A stretch of DNA of 64,000 bases from Hydrogenophaga sp. (GCF_035481345.1 NZ_DATIGV010000020.1:2727-66726); one strand, 5' to 3'. Shown: positions 16,771-33,794, counted from the first letter of the stretch. Program-made: numbers and translations. Notes: a model not told the origin generated them from the sequence alone.

Positions 16771-17247
16771 TCAGAACGAGAGCTTGCTCTGGCCGTTGTC
16801 GAACCAGGCGGTGTCGAAACCCTCGCGCAGAAGGACAACTTTTGTCGCTGAGGTCGACACGCCCTGAGCGCGCTCAAGGTACTTGGCCAGCGTGCTCCGG
16901 TCCTCGCTCAGCAAATGGGAGATGCCCTCGCATTCGCACTGCGCGATCAACTTGAAGTCGTCCTTCACCCTGACACGGTCGTCATCCGGGTCGCGCTGAA
17001 GCCGGCGAATCAAGAGGCCGCACGCCATCGCGTGATCGATGTTGAACGGCAGCACGATGAAGCTGCGCAGGGGAAGGTCGTTGATGGCTTGGCGGACCTG
17101 AAACTCCGACACCGCGACGGTCGACAGGTACATCGGCACCTGTCGGTGCACACATTCCTTGTAGTACTGCACCGCCGCAGCGTAATGCGGACGGGACGGG
17201 TCGCTGAAACTGATGAGAAAACTGGTGTCGAGCAAGACGCTGTTCAA
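16771..17247 (-). CDS. PIN-domain nuclease-like protein (VapC-like, 158 aa)
   Basis: ORF 16771..17277. The likely start is the TTG at 17247, which overlaps the upstream stop (TTGA). The four acidic PIN positions are visible: LLDTSF, VSEF, KDDFKLIAQ, LLSEDRS. Confidence 0.7.
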   Translation of the reverse strand: MNSVLLDTSFLISFSDPSRPHYAAAVQYYKECVHRQVPMYLSTVAVSEFQVRQAINDLPLRSFIVLPFNIDHAMACGLLIRRLQRDPDDDRVRVKDDFKLIAQCECEGISHLLSEDRSTLAKYLERAQGVSTSATKVVLLREGFDTAWFDNGQSKLSF

Positions 17248-18014
17248 TGCTCGCCCCCGCGGATCTGATCGACCCATTCGGTGGCGTTGCCAACGTCCTT
17301 CCAGGCATCCTGGCCACGCCTGTTAAGGCGCGCCAACTCTTCCTCATCCACACGAGGGGCGTACTCCACGAACTCGACGAGGCGCGCGTTGCGCAGCTCC
17401 CGTGTGAGAACGTTGTATTCCGCTCGAATCCGCAACATCGCAATCTTGTAGAGGCGATTGGATGTGTCATCACGCAGAGCGTCCCTTTCGGCCGTCACCA
17501 ACAACGTTGACCCATCGGGCAGGCGAACGTGGGCATTGGGTTTGGCCGTTCCACCCAAGTTCTGAACCTCTCCTCGGACATAACGTTCGACCTGCACCCA
17601 TTGATCCGCGTCGTCCGCGTGGAAATCCGTCTCTCGGCTGACGACGATCGGGCGCGACAAGAAAGGAGCTGAAATGCGGAAGCTGAGGTCTGCATTCTTC
17701 TTCACCAACTTTTGCCAGCTTTCGAACACCGAGCGACGCTTGGCGTCAACTGCGTCGAGCCGCTCGTTGGCCGCCAAGTGCTGAAGGTCCTTCAACAGCT
17801 TGGGGGCAGCAATGGGTACCGTTTCAATGGCCAGCGACCCCGAGCGAATCGCCACGTCGAGACCTTGCGGGTCGACCTCTTTCGTGTCACCTCGCAAAAA
17901 AGTGGCTACGTCGCCGGCAAAGTCCACCAAGCTGGACAGGCGCACCCGATCGGGACTGGCTTCATAGCCACCCGATCGGTCGATCAAGGCCACTGTGATC
18001 CGCTGTGCTTCCAT
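17244..18014 (-). CDS. Hypothetical 256-aa protein, translationally coupled to the PIN gene (antitoxin position)
   Basis: ORF 17244..18014. No family recognised. The C-terminal tail EEELARLNRRGQDAWKDVGNATEWVDQIRGGEH resembles tails of PIN-associated antitoxins. Confidence 0.65.
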   Translation of the reverse strand: MEAQRITVALIDRSGGYEASPDRVRLSSLVDFAGDVATFLRGDTKEVDPQGLDVAIRSGSLAIETVPIAAPKLLKDLQHLAANERLDAVDAKRRSVFESWQKLVKKNADLSFRISAPFLSRPIVVSRETDFHADDADQWVQVERYVRGEVQNLGGTAKPNAHVRLPDGSTLLVTAERDALRDDTSNRLYKIAMLRIRAEYNVLTRELRNARLVEFVEYAPRVDEEELARLNRRGQDAWKDVGNATEWVDQIRGGEH

Positions 18015-18063
18015 GGTCGGGGCATTGTAGGACTGCCCTTCACCCAGCGTCCGTTTGTTTGTT

Positions 18064-19104
18064 CTACGCAGCCGCCCGCCGCCGCAGCGCCACCACCCGC
18101 TCCCCCGTCTCCAGCGACCTCGCCCGCAGCTGCCCGCAGCCCGCGTCCACGTCCTGCCCGGCCGAGTGGCGCAGCTTGGTGAGGATGCCCTGGCGGTGCA
18201 GGCGGCGCGCGATGTCGGCGGCCTTCTCCCAGGCGGGGCGCTGGAACGGCAGGCCGTCGACGGCGTTGTAGGGAATGAGGTTGAGCACGCCGTAGCGCCC
18301 GCCCAGCAGGCGCACGATGCCCTCGACTTCGTCGTCGCCGTCGTTCACGCCGTCGAGCAAGGTCCACTGGTATTGCACCGGGTAGCCGGTGGCGCGCGCG
18401 TAGGCGTCGGCGCGCTCCACCAGGTCCTGCGGCGTGAGGCGCGGCGCGCGCGGCAGCAGTTGCTCGCGCAGCCCGGCCTTGGTGGTGTGCAGCGACAAGG
18501 CCAGCGCGGGCTTGACCGCGCCGCGCGGCAAGGCCTCGAAGGCGCGTTCGTCGCCGACGGTGGAGAACACGAGGTTCTTGTGGCCGATGCCGCCCACGGT
18601 GCCCAGCAGCTCGATGGCCTCGAGCACCGCCTCGAGGTTGTGCGCGGGTTCGCCCATGCCCATGAAGACGACCTTGTTCACCGGCCGGCCCGCGCGCGCC
18701 AGCGCCACCTGGGCCACGATCTCGGCGCTGCCGAGCTGGCGCAACAGGCCGCCGGTGCCGGTCATGCAGAAGGCGCAGCCCACGGCGCAACCGACCTGCG
18801 TGGACACGCACAGGCCGCCGCGCGGCAGGCGCACGCTCTCCACGGTCTGGCCGTCGCGCAGGGCCACGAGCAGGCGGGCCGAGCCGTCCTCACCCGGATG
18901 TTCGGCCTGCAGGCGCGCGAGGCCCGCGAGCGCCTCGCGCAGCGCGGGCAGGGCCTCGAACAGGGCTTTGGGGAAGTGGTGCTCGGGCTTGCGCCGGCCG
19001 GCCTCGGGCGGCAGGGCGTACACCCAGTGGCGCAGCACGCGCTGCGCATGCAGCGGCCCAGCCCCGAGGGCGGTGAGGCGGTGGCGCAGTTCGTGCAATT
19101 GCAT
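18064..19104 (-). CDS. RlmN/Cfr-family radical SAM methyltransferase paralog
   Basis: ORF 18064..19104 (346 aa). GGLCVSTQVGCAVGCAFCMTG contains the CxxxCxxC cluster plus the upstream mechanistic Cys. The C-terminal DVDAGCGQL carries the second mechanistic Cys, as in E. coli RlmN. Confidence 0.85.
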   Translation of the reverse strand: MQLHELRHRLTALGAGPLHAQRVLRHWVYALPPEAGRRKPEHHFPKALFEALPALREALAGLARLQAEHPGEDGSARLLVALRDGQTVESVRLPRGGLCVSTQVGCAVGCAFCMTGTGGLLRQLGSAEIVAQVALARAGRPVNKVVFMGMGEPAHNLEAVLEAIELLGTVGGIGHKNLVFSTVGDERAFEALPRGAVKPALALSLHTTKAGLREQLLPRAPRLTPQDLVERADAYARATGYPVQYQWTLLDGVNDGDDEVEGIVRLLGGRYGVLNLIPYNAVDGLPFQRPAWEKAADIARRLHRQGILTKLRHSAGQDVDAGCGQLRARSLETGERVVALRRRAAA

Positions 19105-19198
19105 GGGGCGGGGATTGTCGCCCAGGGGCGGACCATGTGCGCCGGAGTCGGCCCATGCACCCGCGCCGTTCGCGTGGTCGCGCCTGCGGCGCAGTGGC

Positions 19199-20869
19199 TC
19201 AACCCGGGGACGCGGCGAGCAAGGCGGCCAGCGCCGCCGGCCACTGCGCGGACGAGCGGCAGATCCGCACGCTGGCGCGCCCCAGCGCCGCCGCCAGCGT
19301 GGCGGCCTCGCCAGGCGCCAGCACCAGCGCGCGCACGCCCACGCCGCGCCCCTCGGCCTCGCGTGCGGCGCGTTGCAGGTCGGCCGGGAGGTAGGCTGGG
19401 TCGTGCACGTCCACGTCGTGCGGCTCGCCGTCGCTCAGCAGCACGATCAGCCGTCGGCGGCCCGGGTGGCGGCGCTGGTCGAGCGCGCTCAGGTGCAGGG
19501 CGTGGCGCAGCGCGGCGCCCATGCGCGTGGAGCCGCCGCCCCGCAAAGCCGGCAGGCGCGCGAGCACGTGCTCGTCCCAGTGGCGCAGGCAAGGCATGTC
19601 GATGCGGTGGCGGCCCCGACTCGAAAAAGCCCACAGCGCGCAGCGGTGACCCAGCGCGCGCAGGGCCTGGACCGTGGCCAGGGCCCCGCGCTGCAGTTGC
19701 GCGAGCGGCTCGCCCTCGGTGGAGGCCGAGGCGTCGAGCAGCAGCAGCACCGCCAGCGGCGGCGCCGGGCGTTGCGGTGATCGGTAGACCCGCGCCTCGG
19801 GCGTGCGGCCCGCGAGGCGGTCGAGCCGCGCCTCCACCAGCGCGGCGGGGTGCAACTCCTCGCCCTGGGCGCATCGCCCGCCGCCCGCGCGGCGCTGCAG
19901 GCTCAGGCGGGCAAGACGGCGTTGCAGGCGGTGGCGTTCGGCGCGCGGCGGCGGCGCGGCCTCCCCTGCGGGCGGATCGCCACCGAACACGCGGCACCAG
20001 CCGGGCCGGTAACGCGCGATGCGGTGGTCCCATTCGGGATAGATCGCGTCGGGTTCCAGCGCCACCGGTGTGGGCGAGGCCGACGGCGCGTCGTCGCTGG
20101 GCGGCGCGGCGTCGGCGTTCAGGGGGGCCTCGTCGCGGGGCGGCTCGTCATCGGGCCGCCAGAGGTGGCTGTTGTCGTCGCGGTAGCGCGCGGACACGGT
20201 GTAGGTGCGGGCGTTGAACGGCAGCCGCATCTGGCCGATGTCGTGTCCGAGCCGCGAGGCGGCCTCTCGCACGCGCGCCGGTGTGTCGAGCGCGAGGCCG
20301 CCGTCGGGCGCGAAGAACTCCCGCCGCACCTTGGCGACCCAGGCGTGCGGGTCGTCGTGATCGGGGTTCAGCAGGCTGGCCGCGAGGCGCGCGAGCAGGT
20401 CCTCGAAGCCGCTGCCCTGGCGCGCGGCGGCCTCGGTGTGGAAGGACCACCACACGGCGCGCAGGCCGGGCAGCTCCTGGGCCGCGAGCCATTCCACGCG
20501 CGCGTCCTCCAGCACACCCAGCAGGGCCTGCTGCACGGGCTTGAGTCCCGCGCGCGCCTGCGCTTCACCACCGAAGCGCCGGTGCGCTGCGGCGTGCGCG
20601 GCGATGGCCAGGCTGAGGTCCGGCGCGGGCTCGGCCCAGGCGGGCAGGTGCAGCACGGCCGCGGCGTCGTGCGCGCGCTCGGCCTCGCCGTGGTCGTTGC
20701 CATCGCCGAGGTGCCCGCCACCATCGCGACCGACCACGATCACGGCGCGCTGCGCTGCGTCCTTCGCGCCACCGCGCCACTCGACGCGCCATTGCCCGCC
20801 CCACAGCGCGTGCGCCAGGGCGCGCACCTGGCCCGGCAGGTCGGGCGGCGCGGCACCCGGGCGCGACAT
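19199..20869 (-). CDS. NorD/CbbO-type VWA-domain activation protein
   Basis: ORF 19199..20869 (556 aa). Central YPEWDHRIARYRPGWCRV is the NorD hallmark. The C-terminal VWA domain has LLLLDASASTEG (MIDAS DxSxS) and LIVLLSDGEPHD. Confidence 0.85.
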   Translation of the reverse strand: MSRPGAAPPDLPGQVRALAHALWGGQWRVEWRGGAKDAAQRAVIVVGRDGGGHLGDGNDHGEAERAHDAAAVLHLPAWAEPAPDLSLAIAAHAAAHRRFGGEAQARAGLKPVQQALLGVLEDARVEWLAAQELPGLRAVWWSFHTEAAARQGSGFEDLLARLAASLLNPDHDDPHAWVAKVRREFFAPDGGLALDTPARVREAASRLGHDIGQMRLPFNARTYTVSARYRDDNSHLWRPDDEPPRDEAPLNADAAPPSDDAPSASPTPVALEPDAIYPEWDHRIARYRPGWCRVFGGDPPAGEAAPPPRAERHRLQRRLARLSLQRRAGGGRCAQGEELHPAALVEARLDRLAGRTPEARVYRSPQRPAPPLAVLLLLDASASTEGEPLAQLQRGALATVQALRALGHRCALWAFSSRGRHRIDMPCLRHWDEHVLARLPALRGGGSTRMGAALRHALHLSALDQRRHPGRRRLIVLLSDGEPHDVDVHDPAYLPADLQRAAREAEGRGVGVRALVLAPGEAATLAAALGRASVRICRSSAQWPAALAALLAASPG

Positions 20870-21678
20870 CAGAAGCTCGCGCCCACCAGCGCGCGCAGGC
20901 TGGGCGCGAGCTGCGGGTCGTCGCTCAGCGGGTCGGCGATGGCCTGCATGGCGGCCGCGCGGAGCGGCAGGCCCGCGCGGTGCAGCAGCGCGGCGTGCAC
21001 CAGCATGCGCGTGGAGGCGCCCTCGTCCAGGCCCTCCTCACGCAGGCGGCGCGTGCGGATGGCGAGCTGCACCAGGCGCGTCGCGAGCGCGCCATCGACA
21101 CCGCCTTCGCGCGCCACGATGGCGGCCTCCGCCTCGGGCGCCGGGTAGTCGAAGCCCAGGGCCACGAAGCGCTGGCGCGTGGAGGGCTTGAGCTCGCGGT
21201 GCAGGCCCTGGTAACCGGGGTTGTAGCTGACCACGAGCTGGAAATCGGGGTGCGCGCGCAGCAGCTCGCCATGGCGCTCCAGCGGCAAGGCGCGGCGCGT
21301 GTCGGCCAGGGGGTGCAGCAGCACCGTGGTGTCGGCGCGCGCCTCCATCAGTTCGTCGAGGTAACACAGCGCGCCGTGCCGCGCGGCCAGGGCCAGCGGC
21401 CCGTCCATCCAGCGCGTGCCCTCGCCGTCGAGCAGCCAGCGGCCCGCCAGGTCGCCCGCGCTCAGGTCCTCGTGGCAAGCCACGGTCACCAAGGGCAGCT
21501 TGAGCCGCCAAGCCATGTGCTCGACGAAGCGCGTCTTGCCGCAGCCCGTGGGTCCTTTGAGCAGCACCGGCAGGCGCGCGGCGCGCGCGGCCTCGAAGGC
21601 CGCGACCTCCTCAGCCACCGGCTGGTAGAAGGGCTCCTCGGTGAGGCGCCAGTCGGCCAGCGGATCGGCGTGGGACAC
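20869..21678 (-). CDS. CbbQ/NirQ/NorQ-type MoxR AAA+ ATPase
   Basis: Tail of ORF 20869..21987. The GTG start at 21678 lies 2 nt after the amiE stop. Walker A GPTGCGKT, Walker B LCYLDEL, DFQLVVSYNPGYQG. Its stop overlaps the norD-like ATG (TGATG). Confidence 0.85.
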   Translation of the reverse strand: MSHADPLADWRLTEEPFYQPVAEEVAAFEAARAARLPVLLKGPTGCGKTRFVEHMAWRLKLPLVTVACHEDLSAGDLAGRWLLDGEGTRWMDGPLALAARHGALCYLDELMEARADTTVLLHPLADTRRALPLERHGELLRAHPDFQLVVSYNPGYQGLHRELKPSTRQRFVALGFDYPAPEAEAAIVAREGGVDGALATRLVQLAIRTRRLREEGLDEGASTRMLVHAALLHRAGLPLRAAAMQAIADPLSDDPQLAPSLRALVGASF

Positions 21679-21680
21679 GC

Positions 21681-22721
21681 TCAGCGGTGGCCCGCGGTGG
21701 CCGGGTTGGGGATGCCCTCGATCGGGCACTCCTCCGTGCCCACCATGGGCCGCGTGATGGCCTCGACCGCTTTCTGCGTGCCCTCGGGGTCGTTCACCCA
21801 CTTGCCGTAGAACTCGTAGGGGCAGGCGGCCACCCCCTTGTCGCCGTCGCGCGAGTTGATCATGCCCGTGTAGCCGCGGTGCAGCAGCTTGAACAGGTGG
21901 TTCTCGCTCTGCGCGTTCTTGCGGAAGTCGCGGATCAGGCTTTTCGAGAGCGCGGCGTACTGCACGCCGTAGTCCTCCTCGCCGCATTCGCCGAGCGTGC
22001 GGCCGTCGAAGCCGATGAGGGCGCTGTGGCCGAAGTAGCTGTACACGCCGTCCCAGCCGGAGGCATTGGCCACCGCCACGTAGCTGTTGTTGGCCCAGGC
22101 CATGGCCTTGGCCATCAGCACCTGCTGGTCTTTCGCGGGGTACATGTAGCCCTGGCAGCGCACGATGAGTTCGGCGCCCTTCATGGCGCAGTCGCGCCAG
22201 ATCTCGGGGTAGTTGCCGTCGTCGCAGATGATGAGGCTCACCTTCAGGCCCTTGGGGCCCTCGCTCACGTAGGTGCAGTTGCCGGGGTACCAGCCTTCGA
22301 TGGGCACCCAGGGCATGATCTTGCGGTACTTCTGCACGATCTGGCCCTGGTCGTTCATCAGGATGAGCGTGTTGTAGGGCGCCTTGTACGGGTGCTCCTC
22401 GTGCTGCTCGCCGGTGAGCGAGAACACGCCCCAGACCTTGGCCTTGCGGCAGGCCTCGGCAAAGATCTCGGTCTCGGCGCCAGGCACGGTGGACGCGGTC
22501 TCGTACATCTCCTTGGCGTCGTACATGATCCCGTGCGTGCTGTACTCCGGGAAGATCACCAGGTCCATGCCGGGCAGGCCCTGCTTCATGCCGACCACCA
22601 TGTCGGCGATCTTGCGCGCGTTGTCCAGCACCTCGGCCTTGGTGTGCAGGCGCGGCATCTTGTAGTTGACGACGGCCACGCCAACGGTGTCGGCGCTGCT
22701 TGAAATGTCACCGTGCATCAT
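21681..22721 (-). CDS. amiE: Aliphatic amidase (nitrilase superfamily)
   Basis: ORF 21681..22721 (346 aa). Collinear with P. aeruginosa AmiE along nearly its whole length: [62 protein letters not shown]. Confidence 0.95.
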
Positions 22722-22737: not shown

Positions 22738-23079
22738 TCAGTGGCTGATCATCCAGGGGCGCTTGGAGGGAAACGCCTTTGCGCCATTCGGTGCGGTCAC
22801 CGTGGCCTTGCTGCGCCCGGGGCTGCAACACCCGCAGCCCGCGGGGTGTTTCAGGCGCGCGTAGTCGCCCGATCGTTGGGGCTCGTGCCGCGCGCGCTCG
22901 TTGATGCCCATGGCCGTGCGCGTGGCGCCGTCCATGAGCGCCAGGCGCGGCGCGGTGGCGAACACGCGCGGCGAGGCGGTGCCGCAGTCGGGGCAGAAGG
23001 CCGGATCGTTGCGCTCGCTCAGCGAGCGGTAGGCGTCGAAGCCGCCGCAGGCCGGGCAGGCGTAGTCGTAGGTCGGCAT
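22738..23079 (-). CDS. fmdB: FmdB-family zinc-ribbon putative regulatory protein
   Basis: ORF 22738..23079 (113 aa). [14 protein letters not shown]...CPDCG zinc ribbon, immediately downstream of the formamidase. Confidence 0.8.
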
Positions 23080-23095: not shown

Positions 23096-24322
23096 TCAGA
23101 GGTCCGGAGACAAAGGCATCTGGATCGAGCCGTCGATGTGCTTGATCGGGCCGCTCGCGTTCGGGTTGATGTCGAAGTCGAAGATCTGCGTGGGCAGCCA
23201 CAGCGTGGCGCAGGCGTTGGGCACGTCGACCACGCCGCTGATGTGGCCCTGCACCGGCGCCGTGCCCAGGATGGAGTAGGCCTGCGCGCCCGAGTAGCCG
23301 AACTTCTTCAAGTACTCGATGGCGTTGAGGCAGGCCTGGCGGTAGGCCACGTTCACGTCCAGGTAGTACTGCTTGCCGCTCTCGTCGACGCTGATGCCTT
23401 CGAAGATGACGTAGTCGTCGTAGGTGGGCTTGATGGGGCTGGGCTTGAAGATGGGGTTCTTGATGCCGTACTTGGCCATGCCGCCCTTGATGAGCTGCAC
23501 CTTCATGTGCACCCAGCCGGCCATCTCGATGGCGCCGCAGAAAGTGATCTCGCCGTCGCCCTGGCTGAAGTGCAGGTCACCCACGGAGAGGCCGGCGCCG
23601 TCCACGTAGACCGGGAAGAAGATCTTGGAGCCGCGCGAGAGGTCCTTGATGTCGCAGTTGCCGCCGTGCTCGCGCGGGGGCACGGTGCGCGCGCCGGTGG
23701 CGGCGGCCTTGGCCAGTGCGTCGCCGGTGAGCTTGCCCATGTGCGCGGTGCCCGCGAACGGCGGGTTGGCCAGGCCGCTGGTGGCGGGGTCGGAGTCGAT
23801 CAGCGCCTGCTCGCGCGTGTTCCACACCTCCAGCATCTTCGGGTCGGGCAGGCAGCCGATGAGGCCGGGGTGGATGAGGCCCGCGTACTTCACGCCGGGC
23901 ACGTGGCGCGAGGTGGTGAACATGCCGTGGAAGTCCCAGATGGACTTCTGCGCCTGCGGGAAGTGCTCGGTGAGGAAACCACCGCCGTTCTTCTTGCTGA
24001 AGAAGCCGTTGAAGCCCCAGAGGCTGTCGTCCTTGGCGCCGATGTCGAGCAGGTCGACCACCAGCAGGTCGCCAGGCTCCGCGCCTTTCACGCCCACCGG
24101 GCCACTGAGGTAGTGCACCGTGGTCAGGTCGATGTCGCGCACGTCGTCGGCGCTGTCGTTGTTCTTGATGAAGCCGCCCGTCCAGTCGTAGGTCTCGAGC
24201 ACGAAGTCGTCGCCGGGATTGACCCAGCAGGCCATGGGGATGTCGGGGTGCCAGCGGTTGTGCACCATCTCGTTGGTGGGCGCGGGCTTGGTGAGGTCGA
24301 CCTTGATCAGGGTGTCGGGCAT
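23096..24322 (-). CDS. fmdA: Formamidase (acetamidase/formamidase family)
   Basis: ORF 23096..24322 (408 aa). HNRWHPDIPM, DWTGG.I.NNDSADDVRDIDLT.VHYLSGPV.V.GAEPGDLL match the FmdA family. Confidence 0.92.
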   Translation of the reverse strand: MPDTLIKVDLTKPAPTNEMVHNRWHPDIPMACWVNPGDDFVLETYDWTGGFIKNNDSADDVRDIDLTTVHYLSGPVGVKGAEPGDLLVVDLLDIGAKDDSLWGFNGFFSKKNGGGFLTEHFPQAQKSIWDFHGMFTTSRHVPGVKYAGLIHPGLIGCLPDPKMLEVWNTREQALIDSDPATSGLANPPFAGTAHMGKLTGDALAKAAATGARTVPPREHGGNCDIKDLSRGSKIFFPVYVDGAGLSVGDLHFSQGDGEITFCGAIEMAGWVHMKVQLIKGGMAKYGIKNPIFKPSPIKPTYDDYVIFEGISVDESGKQYYLDVNVAYRQACLNAIEYLKKFGYSGAQAYSILGTAPVQGHISGVVDVPNACATLWLPTQIFDFDINPNASGPIKHIDGSIQMPLSPDL

Positions 24323-24368: not shown

Positions 24369-25058
24369 TCAGACCGACAGGTAGGCCTTGATGCGCTGCT
24401 GGTCGGTGTTGGCGCGTTCGGTCTCGTGCACCAGGCGCCCGCCCTCGATGACGAACAGGCGGTCGGCGACGTCCATGGCGAACGAGAGCACCTGCTCGGA
24501 GACCACGATGGTGATCTTTCGCATCTTGCGGATCTCGTTGAGCGCCTTGGCGATGTCCTTGATGATCGAAGGCTGGATGCCCTCGGTCGGCTCGTCGAGC
24601 AGCAGCACCTTGGGGTCGGTGACGAGCGCGCGTGCGATGGCGAGCTGTTGTTGCTGGCCGCCGGAGAGGTTGCCGCCCTTGCGGCGGCGCATGTCCCACA
24701 GCACGGGGAACAGCGCGTAGATCTCCTGCGGAATCGCCTTGTCCTTCGCGTTCTCCAGGCCGGTCTGGATGTTCTCTTCCACCGTCAGGGTGGGAAAGAT
24801 CATGCGGCCCTGCGGCACGTACGCCAGGCCTTTGGCCACGCGGCGAAAGCTCTCGTCGCGCGTGAGGTCCTGGCCGGCCACGCTGATGTGGCCGCTCTTG
24901 GTGGGCAGCACGCCCATGAGGGCCTTGAACAGCGTGGTCTTGCCCATGCCGTTGCGGCCCATGATGGCCACCGCCTCGTTCTCGCGCGCCTCGAAGCTGA
25001 TGCCGTGCAGCGCCTCGCTCTGGCCATAGGAAACGAACAGGTCCTTGACTTGCAGCAT
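24369..25058 (-). CDS. urtE: Urea/short-chain-amide ABC transporter ATP-binding protein (UrtE-like)
   Basis: ORF 24369..25058 (229 aa). Walker A GRNGMGKTT, signature LSGGQQQ. It is the last of five Urt-order genes. Confidence 0.85.
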   Translation of the reverse strand: MLQVKDLFVSYGQSEALHGISFEARENEAVAIMGRNGMGKTTLFKALMGVLPTKSGHISVAGQDLTRDESFRRVAKGLAYVPQGRMIFPTLTVEENIQTGLENAKDKAIPQEIYALFPVLWDMRRRKGGNLSGGQQQQLAIARALVTDPKVLLLDEPTEGIQPSIIKDIAKALNEIRKMRKITIVVSEQVLSFAMDVADRLFVIEGGRLVHETERANTDQQRIKAYLSV

Positions 25059-25070
25059 GCGGCTTCTCCT

Positions 25071-25814
<744 letters not shown>

Positions 25815-25827
25815 TCGGTGCTCCTGT

Positions 25828-27039
25828 TCAGACGCTCTGGCCGCTGGCGCCTTCGGGCAGCTTCACCTCGGGGGCGCTGCTGGCGACCACCGGCTTGTGC
25901 GGCGCCTGCGGCGCTGGCGAGGGCGGTTGCGCTCGCGCGGCGGACGCCTCGCGCAGCGCGGCGCGCCGGCCCTTCCACCAGGGCACGATGCGGCTCTCCC
26001 ACAGCCCGGCCAGGCCCATGGGGAAGGCCATGGTCACGCCGATGAAGAGCGCGGCCATGAGGAAGAGCCAGAGGTCGGGGAAGCTCTCGGAGAAGAAGGT
26101 CTTGCCCGCGTTGACCAGCAGCGCGCCGTAGACCGCGCCCACCAGGCTCATGCGCCCGCCCACGGCGGCGTAGATGACCATCTCGATGGAGGGCACGATG
26201 CCCACGAAGCTGGGCGACATGAAGCCCACCTGCAGGGTGAACAGCGCGCCGCCGATGCCGGACAGCGCGGCCGCCAGGCAGTACACGAAGATGCGGAAGT
26301 CGGCCACGTCGTAGCCCGAGAAACGCACGCGGTCTTCCTTGTCGCGCATGGCCAGCAGCAGGGTGCCGAGCTTGCTGGTCTGCACCCAGCGGCAGGCCAC
26401 GATGGCCAGCACCAGCAGGCCCACGCAGACGAAGTACAGGATGTATTTGGCGCTGTCGGTGCGCGTGTCCCAGCCCATCAGGGTCTTGAGGTCGGTCATG
26501 CCGTTGACGCCGCCCGTGTAGCCCTGCTGGCCGATGATGAGCACGGTGAGGATGAGCGCCACCGCCTGCGTGATGATGGCGAAGTACACGCCGCCCACGC
26601 GCCGCTTGAACATGGCGAAGCCGATCAGCCAGGCCAGCAGCACCGGCACCACCACCACCGCCGCCAGCGCGAAGGGAAAGCTCTTGAAGGGCAGCCAGAA
26701 CGTGGGCAGTTCGGTGATCTGGTTCCAGTCCATGAAGTCCGGAATGCCGGGCGTGGACTGGATCTTGGTGCTCTCGGGGTCGGAGGCCTCGAGCTTGAGG
26801 AACATGGCCATGGCGTAGCCGCCCAGGCCGAAGAACACGCCCTGCCCCAGGCTCAGCACGCCGCCGTAGCCCCACAGCATCACCAGGCCGATGGCCACGA
26901 AGGCGTAGGTGAGGTACTTGCCCACCAGGTTGAGGCGAAAGATGTCGAGCGACAGCGGCAGCACCACCGCCAGCAGCACGGTGAGCAACACCAGACTGGC
27001 GAGCTGGTAGCGGGTGATCCAGGCTTTCAGGGCGTTCAT
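25828..27039 (-). CDS. urtC: ABC transporter permease (UrtC-like)
   Basis: ORF 25828..27039 (403 aa). Polytopic LivM-type permease with a Pro/Ala-rich C-terminal tail. Confidence 0.85.
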   Translation of the reverse strand: MNALKAWITRYQLASLVLLTVLLAVVLPLSLDIFRLNLVGKYLTYAFVAIGLVMLWGYGGVLSLGQGVFFGLGGYAMAMFLKLEASDPESTKIQSTPGIPDFMDWNQITELPTFWLPFKSFPFALAAVVVVPVLLAWLIGFAMFKRRVGGVYFAIITQAVALILTVLIIGQQGYTGGVNGMTDLKTLMGWDTRTDSAKYILYFVCVGLLVLAIVACRWVQTSKLGTLLLAMRDKEDRVRFSGYDVADFRIFVYCLAAALSGIGGALFTLQVGFMSPSFVGIVPSIEMVIYAAVGGRMSLVGAVYGALLVNAGKTFFSESFPDLWLFLMAALFIGVTMAFPMGLAGLWESRIVPWWKGRRAALREASAARAQPPSPAPQAPHKPVVASSAPEVKLPEGASGQSV

Positions 27040-27064
27040 GGTCGGACTCCGGGTGGCGGGGAAA

Positions 27065-27979
27065 TCAGCGGCGCACTTTGGATGCGAAGAGGCCCTGCGG
27101 ACGCAGCATCAGGATCACGACGATGAGCGAGAGCGTGAGCACCTTGGCCATGGAGCCGGCGAGGAAGAACTCGGTGACGGACTGGGTCTGCGCGATGCCG
27201 AAGGCCGAGACCACGGTGCCCAGCAGGCTGGCCGCGCCGCCGAAGGTGACGACCAGGAAGGCGTCGACGATGTAGAGCGAGCCCGAGGTGGGGCCGGTGG
27301 AGCCGATGGTGGTGAAGGCCGCGCCGGCCACGCCCGCGATGCCGCAGCCGATGGCGAAGGTCAGGCGGTCGGTCTTCTTCGTGTCGATGCCGATGGCGTT
27401 GGCCATCACGCGGTTGCTGACCGTGGCGCGCACCCGCAGGCCCCAGCGGCTGCGGTGCAGGGCCAGCAGCACGCCACCGGTGACCACCGCGGTGAGCGCC
27501 AACACGAACAGGCCGTTGATGGGGATGTCCAGGCCTTCGGTGGGGGCCCAGGAGCCCATCAGCCACTCGGGCAGCGTGGGGCTCACTTCCTTGGGGCCGA
27601 TGAAGGTGCGAAAGCACTGCTGCAGCGCCAGGCTGATGCCCCAGGTGGCCAGCAGCGTGTCCAGCGGGCGCTTGTAGAGGTGGCGGATCAGCGCCCACTC
27701 CACGACCCAGCCCGCGATGAAGGCGAAGACGAAGGCGGCCACGATGGCGAAGGGAAAGTACGCCGCCACCGCGCCGGGGCTGATGGTCTCGGCCAGCGTG
27801 GAGCCGAGGAAGATGGTGTAGGCGCCGATGGTCATGAACTCGCCATGCGCCATGTTGATCACGCCCATCTGCCCGAAGATGATGGCCAGGCCCAGCCCCA
27901 TGAGCAGCAGCACCGCGAACAGGCTCAGGCCCGCGAAGCCCTGCATGACGCCGATGTTGAGCAGGTCGTTGAAACTCAT
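27065..27979 (-). CDS. urtB: ABC transporter permease (UrtB-like)
   Basis: ORF 27065..27979 (304 aa). LivH-type permease. Confidence 0.85.
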   Translation of the reverse strand: MSFNDLLNIGVMQGFAGLSLFAVLLLMGLGLAIIFGQMGVINMAHGEFMTIGAYTIFLGSTLAETISPGAVAAYFPFAIVAAFVFAFIAGWVVEWALIRHLYKRPLDTLLATWGISLALQQCFRTFIGPKEVSPTLPEWLMGSWAPTEGLDIPINGLFVLALTAVVTGGVLLALHRSRWGLRVRATVSNRVMANAIGIDTKKTDRLTFAIGCGIAGVAGAAFTTIGSTGPTSGSLYIVDAFLVVTFGGAASLLGTVVSAFGIAQTQSVTEFFLAGSMAKVLTLSLIVVILMLRPQGLFASKVRR

Positions 27980-28012: not shown

Positions 28013-29284
28013 TTACTGGTAGCCTTTGGGGAAGGGGTCGGGCTTGATCAGCTCGGGCGACTCCGACACCACCTTGAAGGTGCCGTCCGGCATGCCCATC
28101 GCGATGCGCGACTTGCTCCAGAGGTGGTGGTTGGGGTCGAGCTTCACGTAGCCCTCGGGCGCGTCCTTGAGCTCGATGCCGGTGCGCGAGGCGGCCACCA
28201 CCTTGTCGACGTCGAAGCTCTTGGCCTTCTCCACCGCGGCCTTCCACAGCCAGGGGCCCAGGTAGCCGGCCTGCGTCACGTCGCCGATGACGGCGTCCTT
28301 GCCGTACTTGGCCTTGAAGGCGGCCACGAACTTCTTGTTGTTCTCGTTGTCCAGCGTCTGGAAGTACTTCATCGACGAGTAGAAGCCGGCGAAGTTTTCG
28401 CCGCCCACGCCGGTCATCTCGTCCTCGGTCACCGACAGGGTCACCAGGGTCTGCTTGTCACCGGTGATGCCGGCCGCCTTGAGCGCCTTGTAGAAGGCCA
28501 CGTTGGAGCCACCCACCACGGCGGCGAAGATCACGTCGGGCTTCTGCAGCTTGATCTTGTTCATCAGCGAGCCGAAGTTGGTGCTGCCCAGCGGGTAGTA
28601 CTCCTCGCCGACGACCTTGCCCTTCTGGAAGGCCTCGATGTGCTTGCGCGCGATCTTCATCGAGGTGCGCGGCCAGATGTAGTCGGAGCCGATGAGGAAG
28701 AAGGTCTTGGCTTTCTTCTCCTTCTGCGCCCAGTCCAGGCTGTAGAGGATCTGCTGCGTGGCTTCCTGGCCGGTGTAGATCACGTTCTTGGACTGCTCCA
28801 GGCCTTCGTAGAAGGTGGGGTAGTACAGCAGGCCGTTCTCTTTCTCGAACACCGGCAGCACGGCCTTGCGCGAGGCGCTGGTCCAGCAGCCGAAGACGGC
28901 GGCGCAGCGGTCGTTGATGAGCAGCTTCTTGGACTTCTCGGCGAAGGTGGGCCAGTCGGAGGCGCCGTCTTCCTTGATGACCTTGATCTTGCGGCCCAGG
29001 ATGCCGCCCATGGCGTTGATCTGGTCGATGGCGAGCTGCTCGGCCTGGATGGAGCCCGTCTCCGAGATGGCCATGGTGCCGGTGGACGAGTGCAACTGAC
29101 CGACGGTGACTTCGGTGTCCGTGACCGCGAGCTTGGTGGTGTTCACCTGCGCGGTGGGCTGGCCGAAGCTCCAGGTGGGCAGGCCGGCCAGGCCGGCGGC
29201 GCCCAGCATCTGCAGCACGCGGCGGCGGCTGGCCTCGGGGGTTTCGGGCGAAACGTCGTTCGGATCGGGTTGGTGCTTCATCAA
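28013..29284 (-). CDS. urtA: Periplasmic urea/amide-binding protein (UrtA/FmdD-like) with a twin-arginine signal
   Basis: ORF 28013..29284 (423 aa). SRRRVLQMLGAAGLAGL signal. Type I periplasmic binding fold of the Liv/Urt family. Confidence 0.85.
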   Translation of the reverse strand: MMKHQPDPNDVSPETPEASRRRVLQMLGAAGLAGLPTWSFGQPTAQVNTTKLAVTDTEVTVGQLHSSTGTMAISETGSIQAEQLAIDQINAMGGILGRKIKVIKEDGASDWPTFAEKSKKLLINDRCAAVFGCWTSASRKAVLPVFEKENGLLYYPTFYEGLEQSKNVIYTGQEATQQILYSLDWAQKEKKAKTFFLIGSDYIWPRTSMKIARKHIEAFQKGKVVGEEYYPLGSTNFGSLMNKIKLQKPDVIFAAVVGGSNVAFYKALKAAGITGDKQTLVTLSVTEDEMTGVGGENFAGFYSSMKYFQTLDNENNKKFVAAFKAKYGKDAVIGDVTQAGYLGPWLWKAAVEKAKSFDVDKVVAASRTGIELKDAPEGYVKLDPNHHLWSKSRIAMGMPDGTFKVVSESPELIKPDPFPKGYQ

Positions 29285-29452
29285 GGGCTCCTGGGCGGGT
29301 TGGGTCGGTGAAAACCGGCGATGTGCCGACTGGAGCGAAGCCTAGGGAGAACCCTCGATCGGGCCCATAAGTCAAATAACGTAGAGGCGGCGTACGCGCC
29401 CTGGCACGGGGTCGGTACGGTTCTTGTTAGGCCTTGTCCCACTGGAGCCTTC

Positions 29453-32400
29453 ATGCAGCCGCCCGAGCCCGCCACGCCGCCCGCGACCCCCCCATTGGCC
29501 GCGCAGAAGATCTTTCGCTTCCGCCGGGAATACAACTCGTGGGTGGCCGACGAGACCATGGAGGACTACGCGCTGCGGTACACGCCGCGCGCCTTTCGCA
29601 AGTGGAGCGAGTGGCGCGTGGGCCACACGGCCTTTGGCTCGCTGTCCTTCCTGGCGCTGGAGGCGATCGGCGGCGCGATCGCCGTGAATTACGGCTTCGC
29701 CAACGCCATGTGGGCCATCCTGGTGGTGGGGCTGATCATCTTCCTCACCAGCCTGCCCATCGCCTACTACGCGGCGCGCCACGGGCTGGACATGGACCTG
29801 CTCACGCGCGGCGCGGGTTTCGGCTACCTGGGCTCGACGATCACCTCGCTGATCTACGCGGTGTTCACTTTCATCTTCTTCGCCATCGAGGCCGTGATCA
29901 TGGGCCTGGCGCTGGAGATGGCGACCGGTTGGCCGCTGGCCTGGTGCTACCTCATCTCGGCCGTGGTGATCATCCCGCTGGTGATCCGCGGCATCACGCT
30001 GATCTCGAAACTGCAGGCCTGGACGCAACCGCTGTACCTGTTCCTGCTGCTGCTGCCCTTCGTGTGGATCGCGCTGTCGCAGCCCCAGCTCTACCGCGAC
30101 TTCACCAGCCTCGCCGGCCTGCGCTCGGGCGACAGCGGCTTTCACCCGCTGATGTTCGGCGCCGCGGCGGCGGTGATCTTTTCGCTGGTGGTGCAGATCG
30201 GCGAGCAGGTGGACTTCCTGCGCTTCATGCCCGAGCGCACCGCGAAGAACCGCCTGCGCTGGTGGCTGGCGGTGCTGATCCCCGGGCCGGGCTGGGTGGT
30301 GGTGGGCATGCTCAAGATGGTGGGCGGCGCCTTCCTGGCCTTCGCCGCCATGCAGTTCGAGGTGGACCCCGAGCGCACCGCCGAGCCCACGCAGATGTTC
30401 CTGGCCGGCTTCACCGAGGCCGTGGGCCACCCGGGCCTGGCGCTGATCATGACCGTGGTGTTCGTGGTGCTGGCGCAGATCAAGATCAACGTGACCAATG
30501 CCTACGCGGGCTCGCTGGCCTGGAGCAATTTCTTCGCCCGCGTGACGCACAGCCACCCGGGGCGCGTGGTCTGGCTGGTGTTCAACGTCGCCATCGCCAC
30601 GCTGCTGATGCTGCTGGGCGTGTTCGCGGGCATCGAGAAGGTGCTGGGCGTCTACAGCAACGTCGCCATTGCCTGGGTGGGCGCGCTGGTGGCCGATCTG
30701 GTCATCAACAAGCCCCTGGGCCTGAGCCCGCGCGGCATCGAGTTCCGCCGCGCCTACCTGTACGACTTCAATCCGGTGGGCATGGGCTCGATGATCATCG
30801 CGGCGCTGGCGGCCATCCTGGCCTACAGCGGCCTCATGGGCGAGGTGGCCGCCGCCTTCTCACCCTTCATCGCCCTGGGCCTGTCGCTGCTGCTGTCGCC
30901 GCTGCTGGCCTGGGCCACGGGCGGGCGCTGGTACCTGGCGCGAGAGCCCTCCAACGAATGGTGGCCGGGCCAGGCGGTTCGCTGCTCGGTGTGCGAGAAC
31001 CAGTTCGAATCGGAAGACATGGCGAGCTGCCCGGCCTACCGCGCGCCGATCTGCTCGTTGTGCTGCTCGCTCGAGTCGCGCTGCCACGACCGCTGCAAGA
31101 GCAACTCGCGCGCCATCGACCAGGTGCGCGGCTGGCTGGCGCAGGTGCTGCCGCAGCGGCTGATGGCGCGGGTGAACTTTCGCGCCGGGCAATTCCTCGC
31201 GGTCTGGCTGTCGATCAGCGCCATCCTGGCCTTCCTGATCGGCATGGTCTATGTGCAGGAAAGCCTGCACGGCACGGCCACGCTGCTGGATCTGCCGTTT
31301 CTCAAGCTCTACGCCTTCCTGGTGCTGTTCGCGGCGGTGTGTTCCTGGTGGGTGGTGCTGACCACCGACAGCCGCCGCATGGCGCAGGACGAGTCGGAGC
31401 GCCAGACGCAGCTGCTGATGCGCGAGATCGAGGCGCACCAGCGCACCGACGCCGAGCTGCAGTCCGCGCGCGACCGCGCCGAGGCCGCCAGCCAGGCCAA
31501 GACGCGCTACGTGGCGGGCATGACGCACGAGCTGCGTACCCCGCTGACCAGCATCCTGGGCTACGCGCAGATCCTGCAGAAGAACAGCGACATCTCGGTC
31601 TGGGTGCGCGAGACCATCGCCACCATGCAACGCAGCGGCCAGCACATGCATGCGCTGATCGATGGCTCGCTGGACCTGGCGCGCATCGAGGCCGGGCGCC
31701 TGAAGCTCGACACCGTGCCGCTGCCCCTGCCGCAGCTGATGGAGGACGTGGAGCGCATGGTGCGCCCGCAGGCCGAGGCCAAGGGCCTGCGCTTCACCGT
31801 GCAGCGCAGGGGCGAGGTGCCCGCCTGGGTGCGCGCCGACGCCAAGCGCCTGCGCCAGATCCTCATCAACCTGCTGAGCAACGCGGTGCGCTTCACCGAC
31901 GAGGGCGAGGTCACGCTGCGGCTGGACTTTCGCCAGCAGGTGGCGCGCATCGACGTGGTGGACACCGGCATCGGCATCGCCGAGCAGGACCAGAAGCGCA
32001 TCTTCCTGCCCTACGAACGCGGCGCCGCGGGACGCCGCGCGCGCGATTCGGGCACCGGCCTGGGCCTGACCATCACCCACCTGCTGACCGACATGATGGG
32101 TGGCGACCTCACCCTCAAGAGCGCGCCGGGCCAGGGCAGCACCTTCAGCCTGCGGCTGTACCTGCCGCCCATCGCGTCGGACCCGCAGCACCCCTTGCCC
32201 ATTCCCTCCACCCTGCGCGCGGTGACCGGCTACCTGGGCCCGCGCCGCACGGTGCTGGTGGTGGACGACCAGCCGCTGCACCGGCAGTTGCTGGCGAGTA
32301 TCCTGGTGCCGCTGGGCTTCCTGGTGCGCGAGGCCGCCAGCGGCCAGGAATGCCTGGAGATCATCGAGCAGAGCCCGCCCGACCTGCTGCTGCTGGACCT

Positions 32401-32893
32401 GACCATGGATGGACTGGACGGCTGGCAGACCGCGAGCGCGGTGCGCGAGCGCCTGCCGTCCTCGCGCCTGCCAATCGTCTTCGTCTCGGCCAACCTGATC
32501 GACAACCGGCCCGAGGCCTTCAAGGACCTGGACTACCAGGGCTTCGTTGCCAAGCCCATGAGCGAGGCCGAGCTGCTCGACGCGCTGAGCCATGCCTTGT
32601 CGCTGGAGTGGCTGACCGAGCAGGTGCCCGCCAGCGGCGCGTCCGTGCAGGCGGTGCGCCCGCGCCCCGGCCTGCCGCTGCCCGACGCGCTGCGCGAGGA
32701 ACTGCAGCGCCTGGCGCGCCAGGGCCAGGCCGCGGCGCTGCGCCAGCGCCTGTGGCAGGCCCAGGGCACCGAGCCCGCGCACGCGGCCACGCTGGCGCTG
32801 CTGCTGTCCTGCGCCGACCGGTTCGACTTCCAGACCCTGATCGAATACCTGAGAGACACCGAGGAGCTTGCCGACGATGACACCGTGGTCTGA
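29453..32893 (+). CDS. Hybrid sensor histidine kinase with an N-terminal purine/cytosine-permease (NCS1-like) 12-TM domain, Cys-rich linker, HisKA, HATPase and receiver domains
   Basis: Inner ATG of ORF 29321..32893. The permease-like part resembles CodB (DLLTRGAGFGYLGS, QVDFLRFMPERTAKNR). H-box MTHELRTPLTSILGYAQIL, G-boxes DTGIGI and GTGLGLTI, receiver VLVVDDQ...LLLLDLTMDGLDG. Confidence 0.85.
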   Translation: MQPPEPATPPATPPLAAQKIFRFRREYNSWVADETMEDYALRYTPRAFRKWSEWRVGHTAFGSLSFLALEAIGGAIAVNYGFANAMWAILVVGLIIFLTSLPIAYYAARHGLDMDLLTRGAGFGYLGSTITSLIYAVFTFIFFAIEAVIMGLALEMATGWPLAWCYLISAVVIIPLVIRGITLISKLQAWTQPLYLFLLLLPFVWIALSQPQLYRDFTSLAGLRSGDSGFHPLMFGAAAAVIFSLVVQIGEQVDFLRFMPERTAKNRLRWWLAVLIPGPGWVVVGMLKMVGGAFLAFAAMQFEVDPERTAEPTQMFLAGFTEAVGHPGLALIMTVVFVVLAQIKINVTNAYAGSLAWSNFFARVTHSHPGRVVWLVFNVAIATLLMLLGVFAGIEKVLGVYSNVAIAWVGALVADLVINKPLGLSPRGIEFRRAYLYDFNPVGMGSMIIAALAAILAYSGLMGEVAAAFSPFIALGLSLLLSPLLAWATGGRWYLAREPSNEWWPGQAVRCSVCENQFESEDMASCPAYRAPICSLCCSLESRCHDRCKSNSRAIDQVRGWLAQVLPQRLMARVNFRAGQFLAVWLSISAILAFLIGMVYVQESLHGTATLLDLPFLKLYAFLVLFAAVCSWWVVLTTDSRRMAQDESERQTQLLMREIEAHQRTDAELQSARDRAEAASQAKTRYVAGMTHELRTPLTSILGYAQILQKNSDISVWVRETIATMQRSGQHMHALIDGSLDLARIEAGRLKLDTVPLPLPQLMEDVERMVRPQAEAKGLRFTVQRRGEVPAWVRADAKRLRQILINLLSNAVRFTDEGEVTLRLDFRQQVARIDVVDTGIGIAEQDQKRIFLPYERGAAGRRARDSGTGLGLTITHLLTDMMGGDLTLKSAPGQGSTFSLRLYLPPIASDPQHPLPIPSTLRAVTGYLGPRRTVLVVDDQPLHRQLLASILVPLGFLVREAASGQECLEIIEQSPPDLLLLDLTMDGLDGWQTASAVRERLPSSRLPIVFVSANLIDNRPEAFKDLDYQGFVAKPMSEAELLDALSHALSLEWLTEQVPASGASVQAVRPRPGLPLPDALREELQRLARQGQAAALRQRLWQAQGTEPAHAATLALLLSCADRFDFQTLIEYLRDTEELADDDTVV

Positions 32894-33794
32894 CACCCTG
32901 CCACCGCCCGCGGCCACTCAGCCGGTCGTGCTGGTGGTGGACGACTCGTTGGAGACCCTGCGCATGCTGGGCGACGCCCTGGTGGCCGAGGGCTACGTGG
33001 TGCTGGCCGCGCGCGATGCGCAGGAAGCGCTGGAGCGCTTCGAACTCGCCATTCCCGATGGCGTGCTGCTCGACGCCGTGATGCCCGGCATGGACGGCTT
33101 CGAGCTGTGCCAGCGCATCAAGTCCACGCCGGCCTGGTCGCACGTGCCGGTGCTGTTCATGACCGGCCTGTCCGACAGCGAGCCGCTGCTGCGCGGCTTC
33201 GCCAGCGGCGGCGTGGACTACGTGGTCAAGCCGCTGCGCATCCCCGAGGTGATGGCGCGCCTGGCCACGCACCTGCGCAACGCGCGCGTGGCGCGGCTGG
33301 CGCAGGAGGCGGTGGACGTGGCCGGCCTGGGCACCGTCGTGCTGGATTCGCTCGGACGCATGGCCTGGCGCTCGCCGCAGGCCATGGTCTGGCTGGGCCA
33401 GGCCTTCGGCGGTGACGCGGAGGGGCAGGAGCAGGCCGCGCGCTGGCTGGCCGCCGCGCGGCGCGAGGGCACCGCGCAGGTCGACGGTGCGCAGGGCCGC
33501 CTGCTCGCGCGCCACCTGGGCCAGGGCAGCCTGGGCGAGTCCATGCTGCTGCTGAGCCTGACGCCGCTGAACACCGCGGCCGCGCAGCGGCTGCGCGAGG
33601 TCGCGCTCACGCCACGCGAGACCGAGGTGCTGTCCTGGCTGGCCAAGGGCAAGACGAACCGCGACATCGCCGACATCCTGGGCATGAGCCACCGCACGGT
33701 GAACAAGCACCTGGAGCACGTGTTCGAAAAACTGGGCGTGGAGACGCGCGCGGCGGCCGCGGCTATTGCGGGCAAGCTGCTGCCGCAGGCGTGA
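32877..33794 (+). CDS. Response regulator: receiver domain, unassigned central domain and LuxR-type HTH
   Basis: ORF 32868..33794 (the track start is a TTG). The ATG at 32877 has a GAGGAG about 10 nt upstream and overlaps the kinase stop by 17 nt. VVLVVDDS...LLDAVMPGMDG...K; C-terminal LTPRETEVLSWLAKGKTNRDIADILGMSHRTVNKH. Confidence 0.85.
   Translation: MTPWSDTLPPPAATQPVVLVVDDSLETLRMLGDALVAEGYVVLAARDAQEALERFELAIPDGVLLDAVMPGMDGFELCQRIKSTPAWSHVPVLFMTGLSDSEPLLRGFASGGVDYVVKPLRIPEVMARLATHLRNARVARLAQEAVDVAGLGTVVLDSLGRMAWRSPQAMVWLGQAFGGDAEGQEQAARWLAAARREGTAQVDGAQGRLLARHLGQGSLGESMLLLSLTPLNTAAAQRLREVALTPRETEVLSWLAKGKTNRDIADILGMSHRTVNKHLEHVFEKLGVETRAAAAAIAGKLLPQA

Follow-up and report, generated by a model that had tools for sequence, protein, structure and literature searches.

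A family of sensor histidine kinases with an NCS1/CodB-like permease domain, linked to urea and amide genes in Hydrogenophaga and other Pseudomonadota

Our analysis of a 64,000-nucleotide (nt) stretch of DNA from Hydrogenophaga sp. (GCF_035481345.1 NZ_DATIGV010000020.1:2727-66726; this whole stretch is hereafter the window, with positions counted from its first letter) revealed that the hybrid sensor histidine kinase encoded at 29453-32893 begins with ~500 residues homologous to the NCS1/CodB permeases, forming a diverged branch that the curated NCS1 model misses. The protein represents a widespread family of transporter-fused sensor kinases for which no experimental study was found in the literature. 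Its link to urea and amide genes is strongly supported, because the gene order is conserved across three proteobacterial classes and a palindrome recurs in the control region. We consider it fairly probable that the kinase acts as the sensor of a two-component system for urea and/or short-chain amides (formamide, acetamide) and would activate the divergent urtABCDE-fmdAB-amidase operon; our confidence is greater for this operon as the predicted target than for the mechanism as a whole, and smaller for the putative ligand and for any transport. The kinase and its parts are arranged as follows.

29453-32893, plus strand: hybrid sensor histidine kinase, 1146 amino acids (aa) (P0002; open reading frame and translation)
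29549-30922, plus strand: NCS1/CodB-like 12-helix LeuT-fold sensor domain, residues ~33-490 (AlphaFold2 (AF2), Foldseek, hhalign, NCBIfam CodB)
30965-31105, plus strand: cytoplasmic 8-Cys module, residues 505-551 (family conservation, AF2)
31184-31372, plus strand: transmembrane helices TM13 and TM14, residues ~578-602 and 608-640 (Kyte-Doolittle windows)
31373-31495, plus strand: putative coiled-coil/signalling helix, residues 641-681 (read from the sequence between TM14 and HisKA)
31496-31696, plus strand: HisKA dimerisation/phospho-acceptor domain, residues 682-748 (Pfam PF00512; expectation value (E) 7.6e-17)
31838-32164, plus strand: HATPase_c catalytic domain, residues 796-904 (Pfam PF02518, E 3.4e-26)
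32252-32587, plus strand: receiver domain (Response_reg), residues 934-1045 (Pfam PF00072, E 3.5e-21)
32684-32878, plus strand: small C-terminal four-helix domain, weakly HPt-like, residues 1078-1142 (AF2, predicted local distance difference test (pLDDT) >90 over the helices)

An earlier note on this DNA had taken the N-terminal region for a complete NCS1 permease domain with 12 membrane helices. The AF2 model of residues 1-560, for which 70 family sequences served as input, contained those 12 helices, with a broken TM1 (pLDDT 94.6; predicted template modelling score 0.92). Foldseek searches against the Protein Data Bank (PDB) ranked CodB first (7qoa; E 7e-11 and 2.5e-10; TM-score 0.70-0.79 on the target) and then Mhp1 in three states (2jln, 4d1a and 2x79; E 1e-9 to 3e-8), these two being the only NCS1 proteins with solved structures; other LeuT-fold families (SiaT, Nramp, SGLT and APC) came in at 1.6e-6 or worse. 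With hhalign, the 70-sequence family profile matched an NCS1 profile of six sequences (E. coli CodB and five PF02133-positive genes from genomes of the same class) at 98.6% (E 1.2e-15; 412 columns; query 33-511 against CodB 1-418), rising to 99.6% in global mode, and matched the single CodB sequence at 70.8%. Aligned motif pairs, with the family named before CodB, include DLLTRGAGFGYLGS and HLLARFSFGVKGS, EQVDFLRFMP and TADFVRFGR, and KINVTNAYAGS and WTTNDNALYAS. The NCBIfam CodB model (PRK11017) aligned from positions 6 to 380 of its 416 with residues 38-457 at E 9.5e-6, scoring 24.6 bits where the curated cut-off is 326.

The part of the NCS1 claim that did not hold is recognition by Pfam. 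PF02133 gave no match to the full protein or to its N-terminal 560 aa, even at E 10, nor to any part of the genome in a six-frame search, and among 36 diverse family members a single one reached E 0.0014. No Pfam family matched residues 1-640, within the full protein or alone, and PDB sequences searched by phmmer and with the family profile returned no transporter, only weak zinc-finger-like matches to the Cys module. Conservation within the protein is highest in the membrane domain, where invariant polar residues occur within helices and on every cytoplasmic loop; the most conserved loops (residues 111-126, 251-280, 363-371 and 414-443) would be cytoplasmic by the usual NCS1 topology.

The minus-strand block divergent from the kinase gene begins 168 nt upstream of it, and a response regulator gene follows the kinase gene on its own strand.

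28013-29284, minus strand: UrtA/FmdD-type periplasmic binding protein, first gene of the divergent operon (Pfam Peripla_BP_5, E 6e-124)
24369-27979, minus strand: urtB and urtC permeases, urtD and urtE ATPases, in conserved order (Pfam BPD_transp_2 twice, ABC_tran twice)
23096-24322, minus strand: fmdA, formamidase (Pfam FmdA_AmdA, E 2.5e-181)
22738-23079, minus strand: fmdB, zinc-ribbon protein (Pfam Zn_ribbon_8)
21681-22721, minus strand: aliphatic amidase of the carbon-nitrogen hydrolase family (Pfam CN_hydrolase, E 4e-48)
32877-33794, plus strand: response regulator with a receiver (REC), a middle part of ~110 aa and a GerE/LuxR helix-turn-helix (HTH) (Pfam; ribosome-binding site GAGGAG, ATG at 32877)

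This layout, with the kinase divergent from urtABCDE-fmdA-fmdB-amidase and a LuxR-type regulator overlapping its 3' end (here by 17 nt), is the one that the earlier note had drawn. The regulator belongs by its Pfam domains to the NarL/FixJ (LuxR-type) class (Response_reg, E 1.4e-22; GerE, E 3.1e-19), and the part between its receiver (residues 21-132) and its GerE HTH (residues 246-301) matched no Pfam family at E ≤0.001. Behind the amidase gene lies a pair of NorQ-like and VWA (NorD-like) genes (19199-21987 in the window), and in the nearest Hydrogenophaga and Hylemonella loci (L001-L003 and L012) tblastn located such a pair in the same position.

The linkage was examined with one genome per species, in the best 80 of at least 597 confirmed loci, whose neighbours were identified by tblastn with the window proteins. 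A regulator homologue lay directly downstream of the kinase in 63 of the 67 loci with enough sequence, and a divergent urtA adjoined the kinase in 53 of 73. Where both flanks were complete, a urtA homologue was found within 10 kb of the kinase in most cases (46/51), and loci with at least 8 kb of upstream sequence contained fmdA (43/59) or the amidase (19/59). The hosts include Betaproteobacteria (Burkholderia, Paraburkholderia, Pandoraea, Achromobacter, Bordetella, Methyloversatilis and Methylophilaceae), Gammaproteobacteria (Pseudomonas oryzihabitans, Alcanivorax, Methylococcaceae and Cellvibrionaceae) and Alphaproteobacteria (Bradyrhizobium, Martelella and Enhydrobacter), together with two cyanobacterial metagenome-assembled genomes (MAGs). 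This conserved order in three classes, along with the palindrome described below, strongly supports the suggested connection between the kinase and the amide operon. One locus (L078), whose contig bears the label of a Chitinophaga pinensis MAG (Bacteroidota), encodes a kinase that falls inside a Comamonadaceae/Burkholderiales clade of the tree; this placement is probably a binning error and not a transfer.

A second set of loci carries the kinase beside a more distant urtABCDE (UrtA ~36-43% identity) and is devoid of fmdA, and we take it to be the urea system proper. The genome under study has such a second system on contig C144 (locus L083), where the gene for a 1149-aa kinase (58% sensor identity) precedes those for a regulator of its own and for a UrtA of 39% identity. 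The contig ends just upstream of this kinase gene.

L083 3560-7009, minus strand: kinase
L083 2590-3579, minus strand: regulator
L083 196-1566, minus strand: urtA

In Dechloromonas, a 1131-aa kinase and a 308-aa receiver protein were likewise listed beside urtA and urease genes (PMC2907700). A Hylemonella MAG contains two kinase-regulator pairs within ~11 kb (L012:10001-14264 and 16774-21209), with kinases 66% and 48% identical to that of the window.

Motif enrichment in 55 kinase-urtA intergenic regions, compared with shuffled sequences, detected the hexamer GACGTA in 50 regions (≤22 in shuffles) and the heptamer TACGTCA in 41 (≤12 in shuffles). The conserved sites form the palindrome TACGTC-N4-GACGTA, which can also be read in a 7-2-7 layout as TACGTCA-nn-TGACGTA; 7-2-7 inverted repeats are a familiar arrangement for NarL-type regulators. 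Perfect dyads occurred 27 times in 1.43 Mb of fetched loci, against an estimated ~0.3 by chance, and 25 of them lay just upstream of a kinase gene, 22 being between the kinase gene and a divergent urtA. The window has one degenerate copy.

29368-29383, strand not assigned: degenerate palindrome copy TAAGTCaaatAACGTA, two mismatches, candidate regulator site between urtA and the kinase gene

The nearest relatives have one mismatch (L001, L003 and L008) or the same two-mismatch copy as the window (L002). A scan of the whole genome found no copy with zero or one mismatch and 17 with two, of which only that of the window and that of the paralogous system occupy a meaningful position. The latter is a perfect dyad of a variant type, TACGCC-N4-GGCGTA (TACGCCgggtGGCGTA; L083 1629-1644), 63 nt upstream of urtA. 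Its TACGCC half-site is shared by two other urea-linked loci. Among the urea-linked systems examined, a dyad of this type was present upstream of urtA in only three. We infer that the LuxR-type regulator binds these candidate dyads, and the two variants would fit two insulated regulator-operator pairs in one genome. No terminator was found by a scan of the kinase-urtA intergenic region. A Hydrogenophaga relative (L003:2596-2611) has a second perfect dyad, TACGTCAATTGACGTA, between fmdB and the amidase gene, which suggests that the amidase may be separately controlled there.

The window is rich in G+C (65-77% per 1-kb window), and third-position GC indicated a single plus-strand gene at 29321/29453-32893. 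The longer frame from 29321 was rejected as the start of the kinase in favour of ATG 29453, which is preceded by a candidate ribosome-binding site (GGAG) and agrees with the lengths of the orthologues (1141-1146 aa); the database contains a 1146-aa protein 100% identical to the kinase, and its nearest relatives are from Hydrogenophaga (88-97% identity). The HisKA, HATPase and receiver domains attributed to the protein beforehand were recovered by Pfam, with the motifs of the HisKA class intact. The phospho-acceptor His692 (31526-31528) opens the H-box HELRTP, the N (N806), G1 (837), F (850) and G2 (867) boxes were located in the HATPase domain, and the fused receiver has the DD, D, S and K motifs with Asp982 as acceptor. 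The kinase should be active, because His692, all four boxes and Asp982 are present.

The additional C-terminal helical region that had been noted is resolved in the AF2 model as four short helices. Its best Foldseek match was the HPt domain of RcsD, at a non-significant E of 2.6, with other HPt domains ranked lower. No His is conserved in this domain across the family, and Pfam Hpt matched neither the window kinase nor any of the seven ~1140-aa hybrid-kinase representatives scanned, and an HPt identity for this domain is therefore unsupported.

Between the permease-like core and the kinase lie the Cys-rich segment and the two extra membrane helices, both of which the earlier note had also pointed out. 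The cysteines at 511, 514, 526, 534, 537, 538, 544 and 548, either invariant among the 70 family members or shared by at least 90% of them, are spaced C-x2-C-x11-C-x7-C-x2-CC-x5-C-x3-C. AF2 folded the module compactly as four short strands and a helix (pLDDT ~94); in sequence, its only similarities were weak ones to zf-HIT, B-box and C1 zinc fingers. It is probably a two-zinc cross-brace finger, because eight ligands fit that arrangement. We read the cytoplasmic face of the permease-like core as the surface that the Cys module and TM13-14 would sense.

To examine the putative substrate pocket, the residue roles established for CodB (PMC9379551) were transferred via the profile alignment, which is remote and least certain at TM1 and TM6. 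Each CodB residue is given with its counterpart in the window kinase and the count among the 70 family members.

CodB R216, NCS1-wide Arg: R257, 70/70
CodB Y285, NCS1-wide Tyr: Y351, 68/70
CodB N280, TM8 substrate Asn: N346, 70/70
CodB W108, ring-stacking aromatic: F142, F in 55/70 and L in 10/70
CodB F204, ring-stacking aromatic: L245, 65/70
CodB T278, sodium-site hydroxyl: K344, 68/70
CodB T279, sodium-site hydroxyl: I345, 66/70
CodB A207, TM6b: Q248, 67/70

By this alignment the conserved Arg, Tyr and TM8 Asn of NCS1 proteins are retained, and the aromatic pair and the Na2-site hydroxyls are absent, a result less certain for TM6. CodB N280 appears to be the counterpart of Mhp1 N318, which makes a bidentate contact with the hydantoin ring. 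We read the pocket as one that would be unsuited to a flat ring, that retains side chains for amide recognition and in which Lys replaces a sodium-site ligand. In a quick tree, the urea-linked kinases grouped mostly in one clade, which includes four fmd-linked ones, and the two contexts did not form clean clades; the urea-linked and fmd-linked kinases may share a ligand range.

The family extends well beyond these loci. An exhaustive profile-free search returned 1838 representative clusters (50% identity) at E ≤1e-3, including 466 at ≤1e-30, and a word-based search found at least 8000 clusters at 90% identity. Members were present in 44 of 401 sampled Pseudomonadota genomes, representing 30 of 211 genera, nearly all of them as frames of 1120-1250 aa. 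Distant members join the same sensor to PAS, GAF, Hpt, GGDEF and EAL domains. Furthermore, six stand-alone proteins of 519-576 aa (P0176, P0187, P0188, P0192, P0240 and P0261) consist of the permease-like domain and the 8-Cys module, and end right after the module.

Another stand-alone permease, of 497 aa and 30% identical to the sensor, was found in genome G348 (contig C40; L092:7949-13000). It passes PF02133 at 36.4 bits, yet its closest relatives in the 401-genome sample are the kinase sensors and not ordinary NCS1 permeases. Its gene lies directly upstream of genes for an amidase, an AmiC-like binding protein and an AmiR antiterminator, which makes it a candidate amide permease of an ami-type operon. 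Although it is a single case, it would connect this NCS1 branch with the use of amides by evidence separate from the kinase loci.

The arrangement of domains, the homology, the linkage of the genes and the conservation of the dyad are observed; the ligand, the direction of regulation, the coupling path and the phosphotransfer route in the following scheme are inferred. Binding of urea or a small amide would shift the rocking equilibrium of the LeuT fold, a change that the 8-Cys module, which probably binds zinc, and the two added membrane helices would detect at the strongly conserved cytoplasmic face. The signal would then pass through the coiled coil to the HisKA/HATPase core, and phosphate would be passed to the co-translated REC-LuxR regulator, either straight from the core, in which case the receiver of the kinase would act as a sink or modulator, or via a separate HPt. 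Transcription would be activated by a regulator dimer bound to the TACGTC-N4-GACGTA dyad that lies between urtA and the kinase gene.

Only tentatively do we advance a more specific version, in which the family would be an independent second bacterial 'transceptor'. Its NCS1-derived domain would be sodium-independent, with Lys in place of a sodium-site ligand, and would recognise urea, formamide or acetamide through the TM8 Asn and the TM6 Gln; a zinc-finger clamp and two helices would provide the coupling, unlike STAC. It would be the long-missing sensor for the induction of Urt/Fmd systems by urea and formamide in about one-tenth of the sampled Pseudomonadota species, and would also drive cyclic di-GMP enzymes in other members.

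Several observations weigh against the sensing of urea and amides as proposed here. No urtA was nearby in five of the 51 full-flank loci, the dyad copy in the window deviates from the palindrome at two positions, and a consensus scan of the intergenic region detected no sigma-70-like promoter. The pocket mapping is a remote alignment, less certain near TM1 and TM6. Only one position distinguishes the kinases of fmd-linked loci from those of urea-linked loci, and that position (F518 versus Y) belongs to the Cys module and not to the membrane domain; the pocket fails to explain the two systems in one genome, because no pocket residue separates their contexts. The amidase-operon permease is a single example among the 401 sampled genomes, and the hybrid kinase has no recognisable HPt through which phosphate could pass to the regulator. 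The loci devoid of a nearby urtA and the degenerate dyad would also be consistent with a coincidental neighbourhood, in which the kinase-regulator pair controls unrelated genes elsewhere, but linkage across three proteobacterial classes and a conserved dyad in the shared control region make this most improbable. The lack of pocket differences between urea-linked and fmd-linked kinases would suit a system that controls urt/fmd and senses some other signal: an NCS1-type ureide (allantoin, hydantoin or nucleobase), ammonium or nitrogen status, or a product such as formate. The nearest named relatives are cytosine and allantoin permeases, and the fmd cluster of Methylophilus is repressed by ammonia (PMC10781810). 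We think such a signal unlikely, however, as the aromatic residues between which CodB and Mhp1 hold nucleobases and hydantoins are not retained (W108 to F142, F204 to L245), the genomic partners are urea/amide importers and amidases and not allantoin or pyrimidine genes, and a stand-alone relative occurs in an amidase operon.

Two other explanations concern the role of the permease-like domain itself. It might be primarily a working secondary transporter for urea or amides, with the kinase reporting flux, as in a true transceptor like CbrA, which both transports and signals (PMC13022988). The 12 helices, the retained NCS1 hallmarks (R257, N346 and Y351) and the existence of stand-alone forms would all agree with this; yet the neighbouring genes encode a high-affinity ABC importer for these substrates and the sodium-site side chains are replaced (K344 and I345), leaving such a role with a slim chance in our estimation. 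Conversely, the domain might serve mainly as an anchor or scaffold, and the 8-Cys module be the true input as a redox, metal or Fe-S switch, given its eight near-invariant cysteines and the location within it of the only context-separating position (F518 versus Y). This is very unlikely, since conservation that exceeds the rest of the protein, and invariant polar residues, would be unexpected if the membrane domain were an anchor, the spacing of the cysteines suits a structural two-zinc finger, and the module is also found on stand-alone permease-like proteins that have no kinase. Detection of urea and/or short-chain amides by the permease-like domain, with control of the divergent operon, is the reading that we prefer.

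This reading places the family beside other transporter-fused kinases. Like CbrA/CbrB, CrbS/CrbR (MxtR/ErdR) and RpuS/RpuR, the protein has a complete LeuT-fold transporter N-terminal to a histidine kinase (PMC9100948; PMC13022988), an arrangement called rare in a 2026 preprint on CbrA (PMC13022988). The Na2 site of CbrA is reported to hold a Lys side chain (PMC13022988), and near-invariant K344 replaces a Na2-site Thr here, by alignment. The SLC5/STAC kinases control the uptake or catabolism of the solute they sense, and we propose the same principle for this family. In contrast to them, its transporter is NCS1/CodB-like, its coupling elements are the 8-Cys module and two extra helices, and its proposed substrate class and regulon belong to urea/amide nitrogen scavenging. 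No Pfam match to SSF or STAC was found in the kinase, and SSS members ranked below NCS1 in Foldseek. With CodB (7qoa) and Mhp1 (2jln, 4d1a and 2x79) the sensor shares homology over all 12 helices, the Arg, Tyr and TM8 Asn, and motifs such as DLLTRGAGFGY (HLLARFSFGV) and DFLRF (DFVRF). It departs from both in falling below the PF02133 threshold, in the replaced aromatic sandwich and Na2 threonines, and in its C-terminal Cys module and fusion to signalling domains.

To our knowledge, AmiC/AmiR is the only known mechanism by which an amide inducer is sensed in proteobacteria. In P. aeruginosa, AmiC is a soluble binding protein that controls the antiterminator (AmiR) of the amidase operon. The predicted targets here, an aliphatic amidase and fmdA with a Urt/Fmd-type importer, resemble those of AmiC/AmiR and of the 'putative positive regulator' FmdB of Methylophilus, whereas a membrane permease-like kinase and a DNA-binding LuxR-type regulator, unlike AmiC/AmiR, would do the sensing and the switching. 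In Methylophilus, both urea and amides are substrates of the Fmd importer, and either formamide or urea induces the fmd cluster; the 2024 review on the use of formamide that describes this mentions no two-component sensor for fmd induction (PMC10781810). Kazakov et al. (2015) list a two-component regulator of Desulfovibrio vulgaris, DVU1156, with target DVU1164, under 'amide metabolism' (PMC4641369); DVU1156 is a sigma-54 activator and the regulator here is LuxR-type. The NCS1-kinase architecture has already been noticed computationally: automatic annotation by the Joint Genome Institute (JGI) labels relatives 'purine-cytosine permease-like', and two genome papers, one of them PMC2907700, only list such a kinase-regulator pair beside urt genes. 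No experimental work on an NCS1-fused kinase, or on this family, came up in full-text literature searches, as the earlier note, aware of no characterised example, had supposed.

Urea and small amides rank among the main sources of nitrogen in soil, in water and in hosts. This family would offer a testable answer to how bacteria detect them, and, beside CbrA, a second structural solution to the coupling of a LeuT-fold transporter to a kinase. It would also offer a natural part, composed of a sensor, a regulator and a 16-bp operator, for urea and formamide biosensors and for formamide-based production strains.

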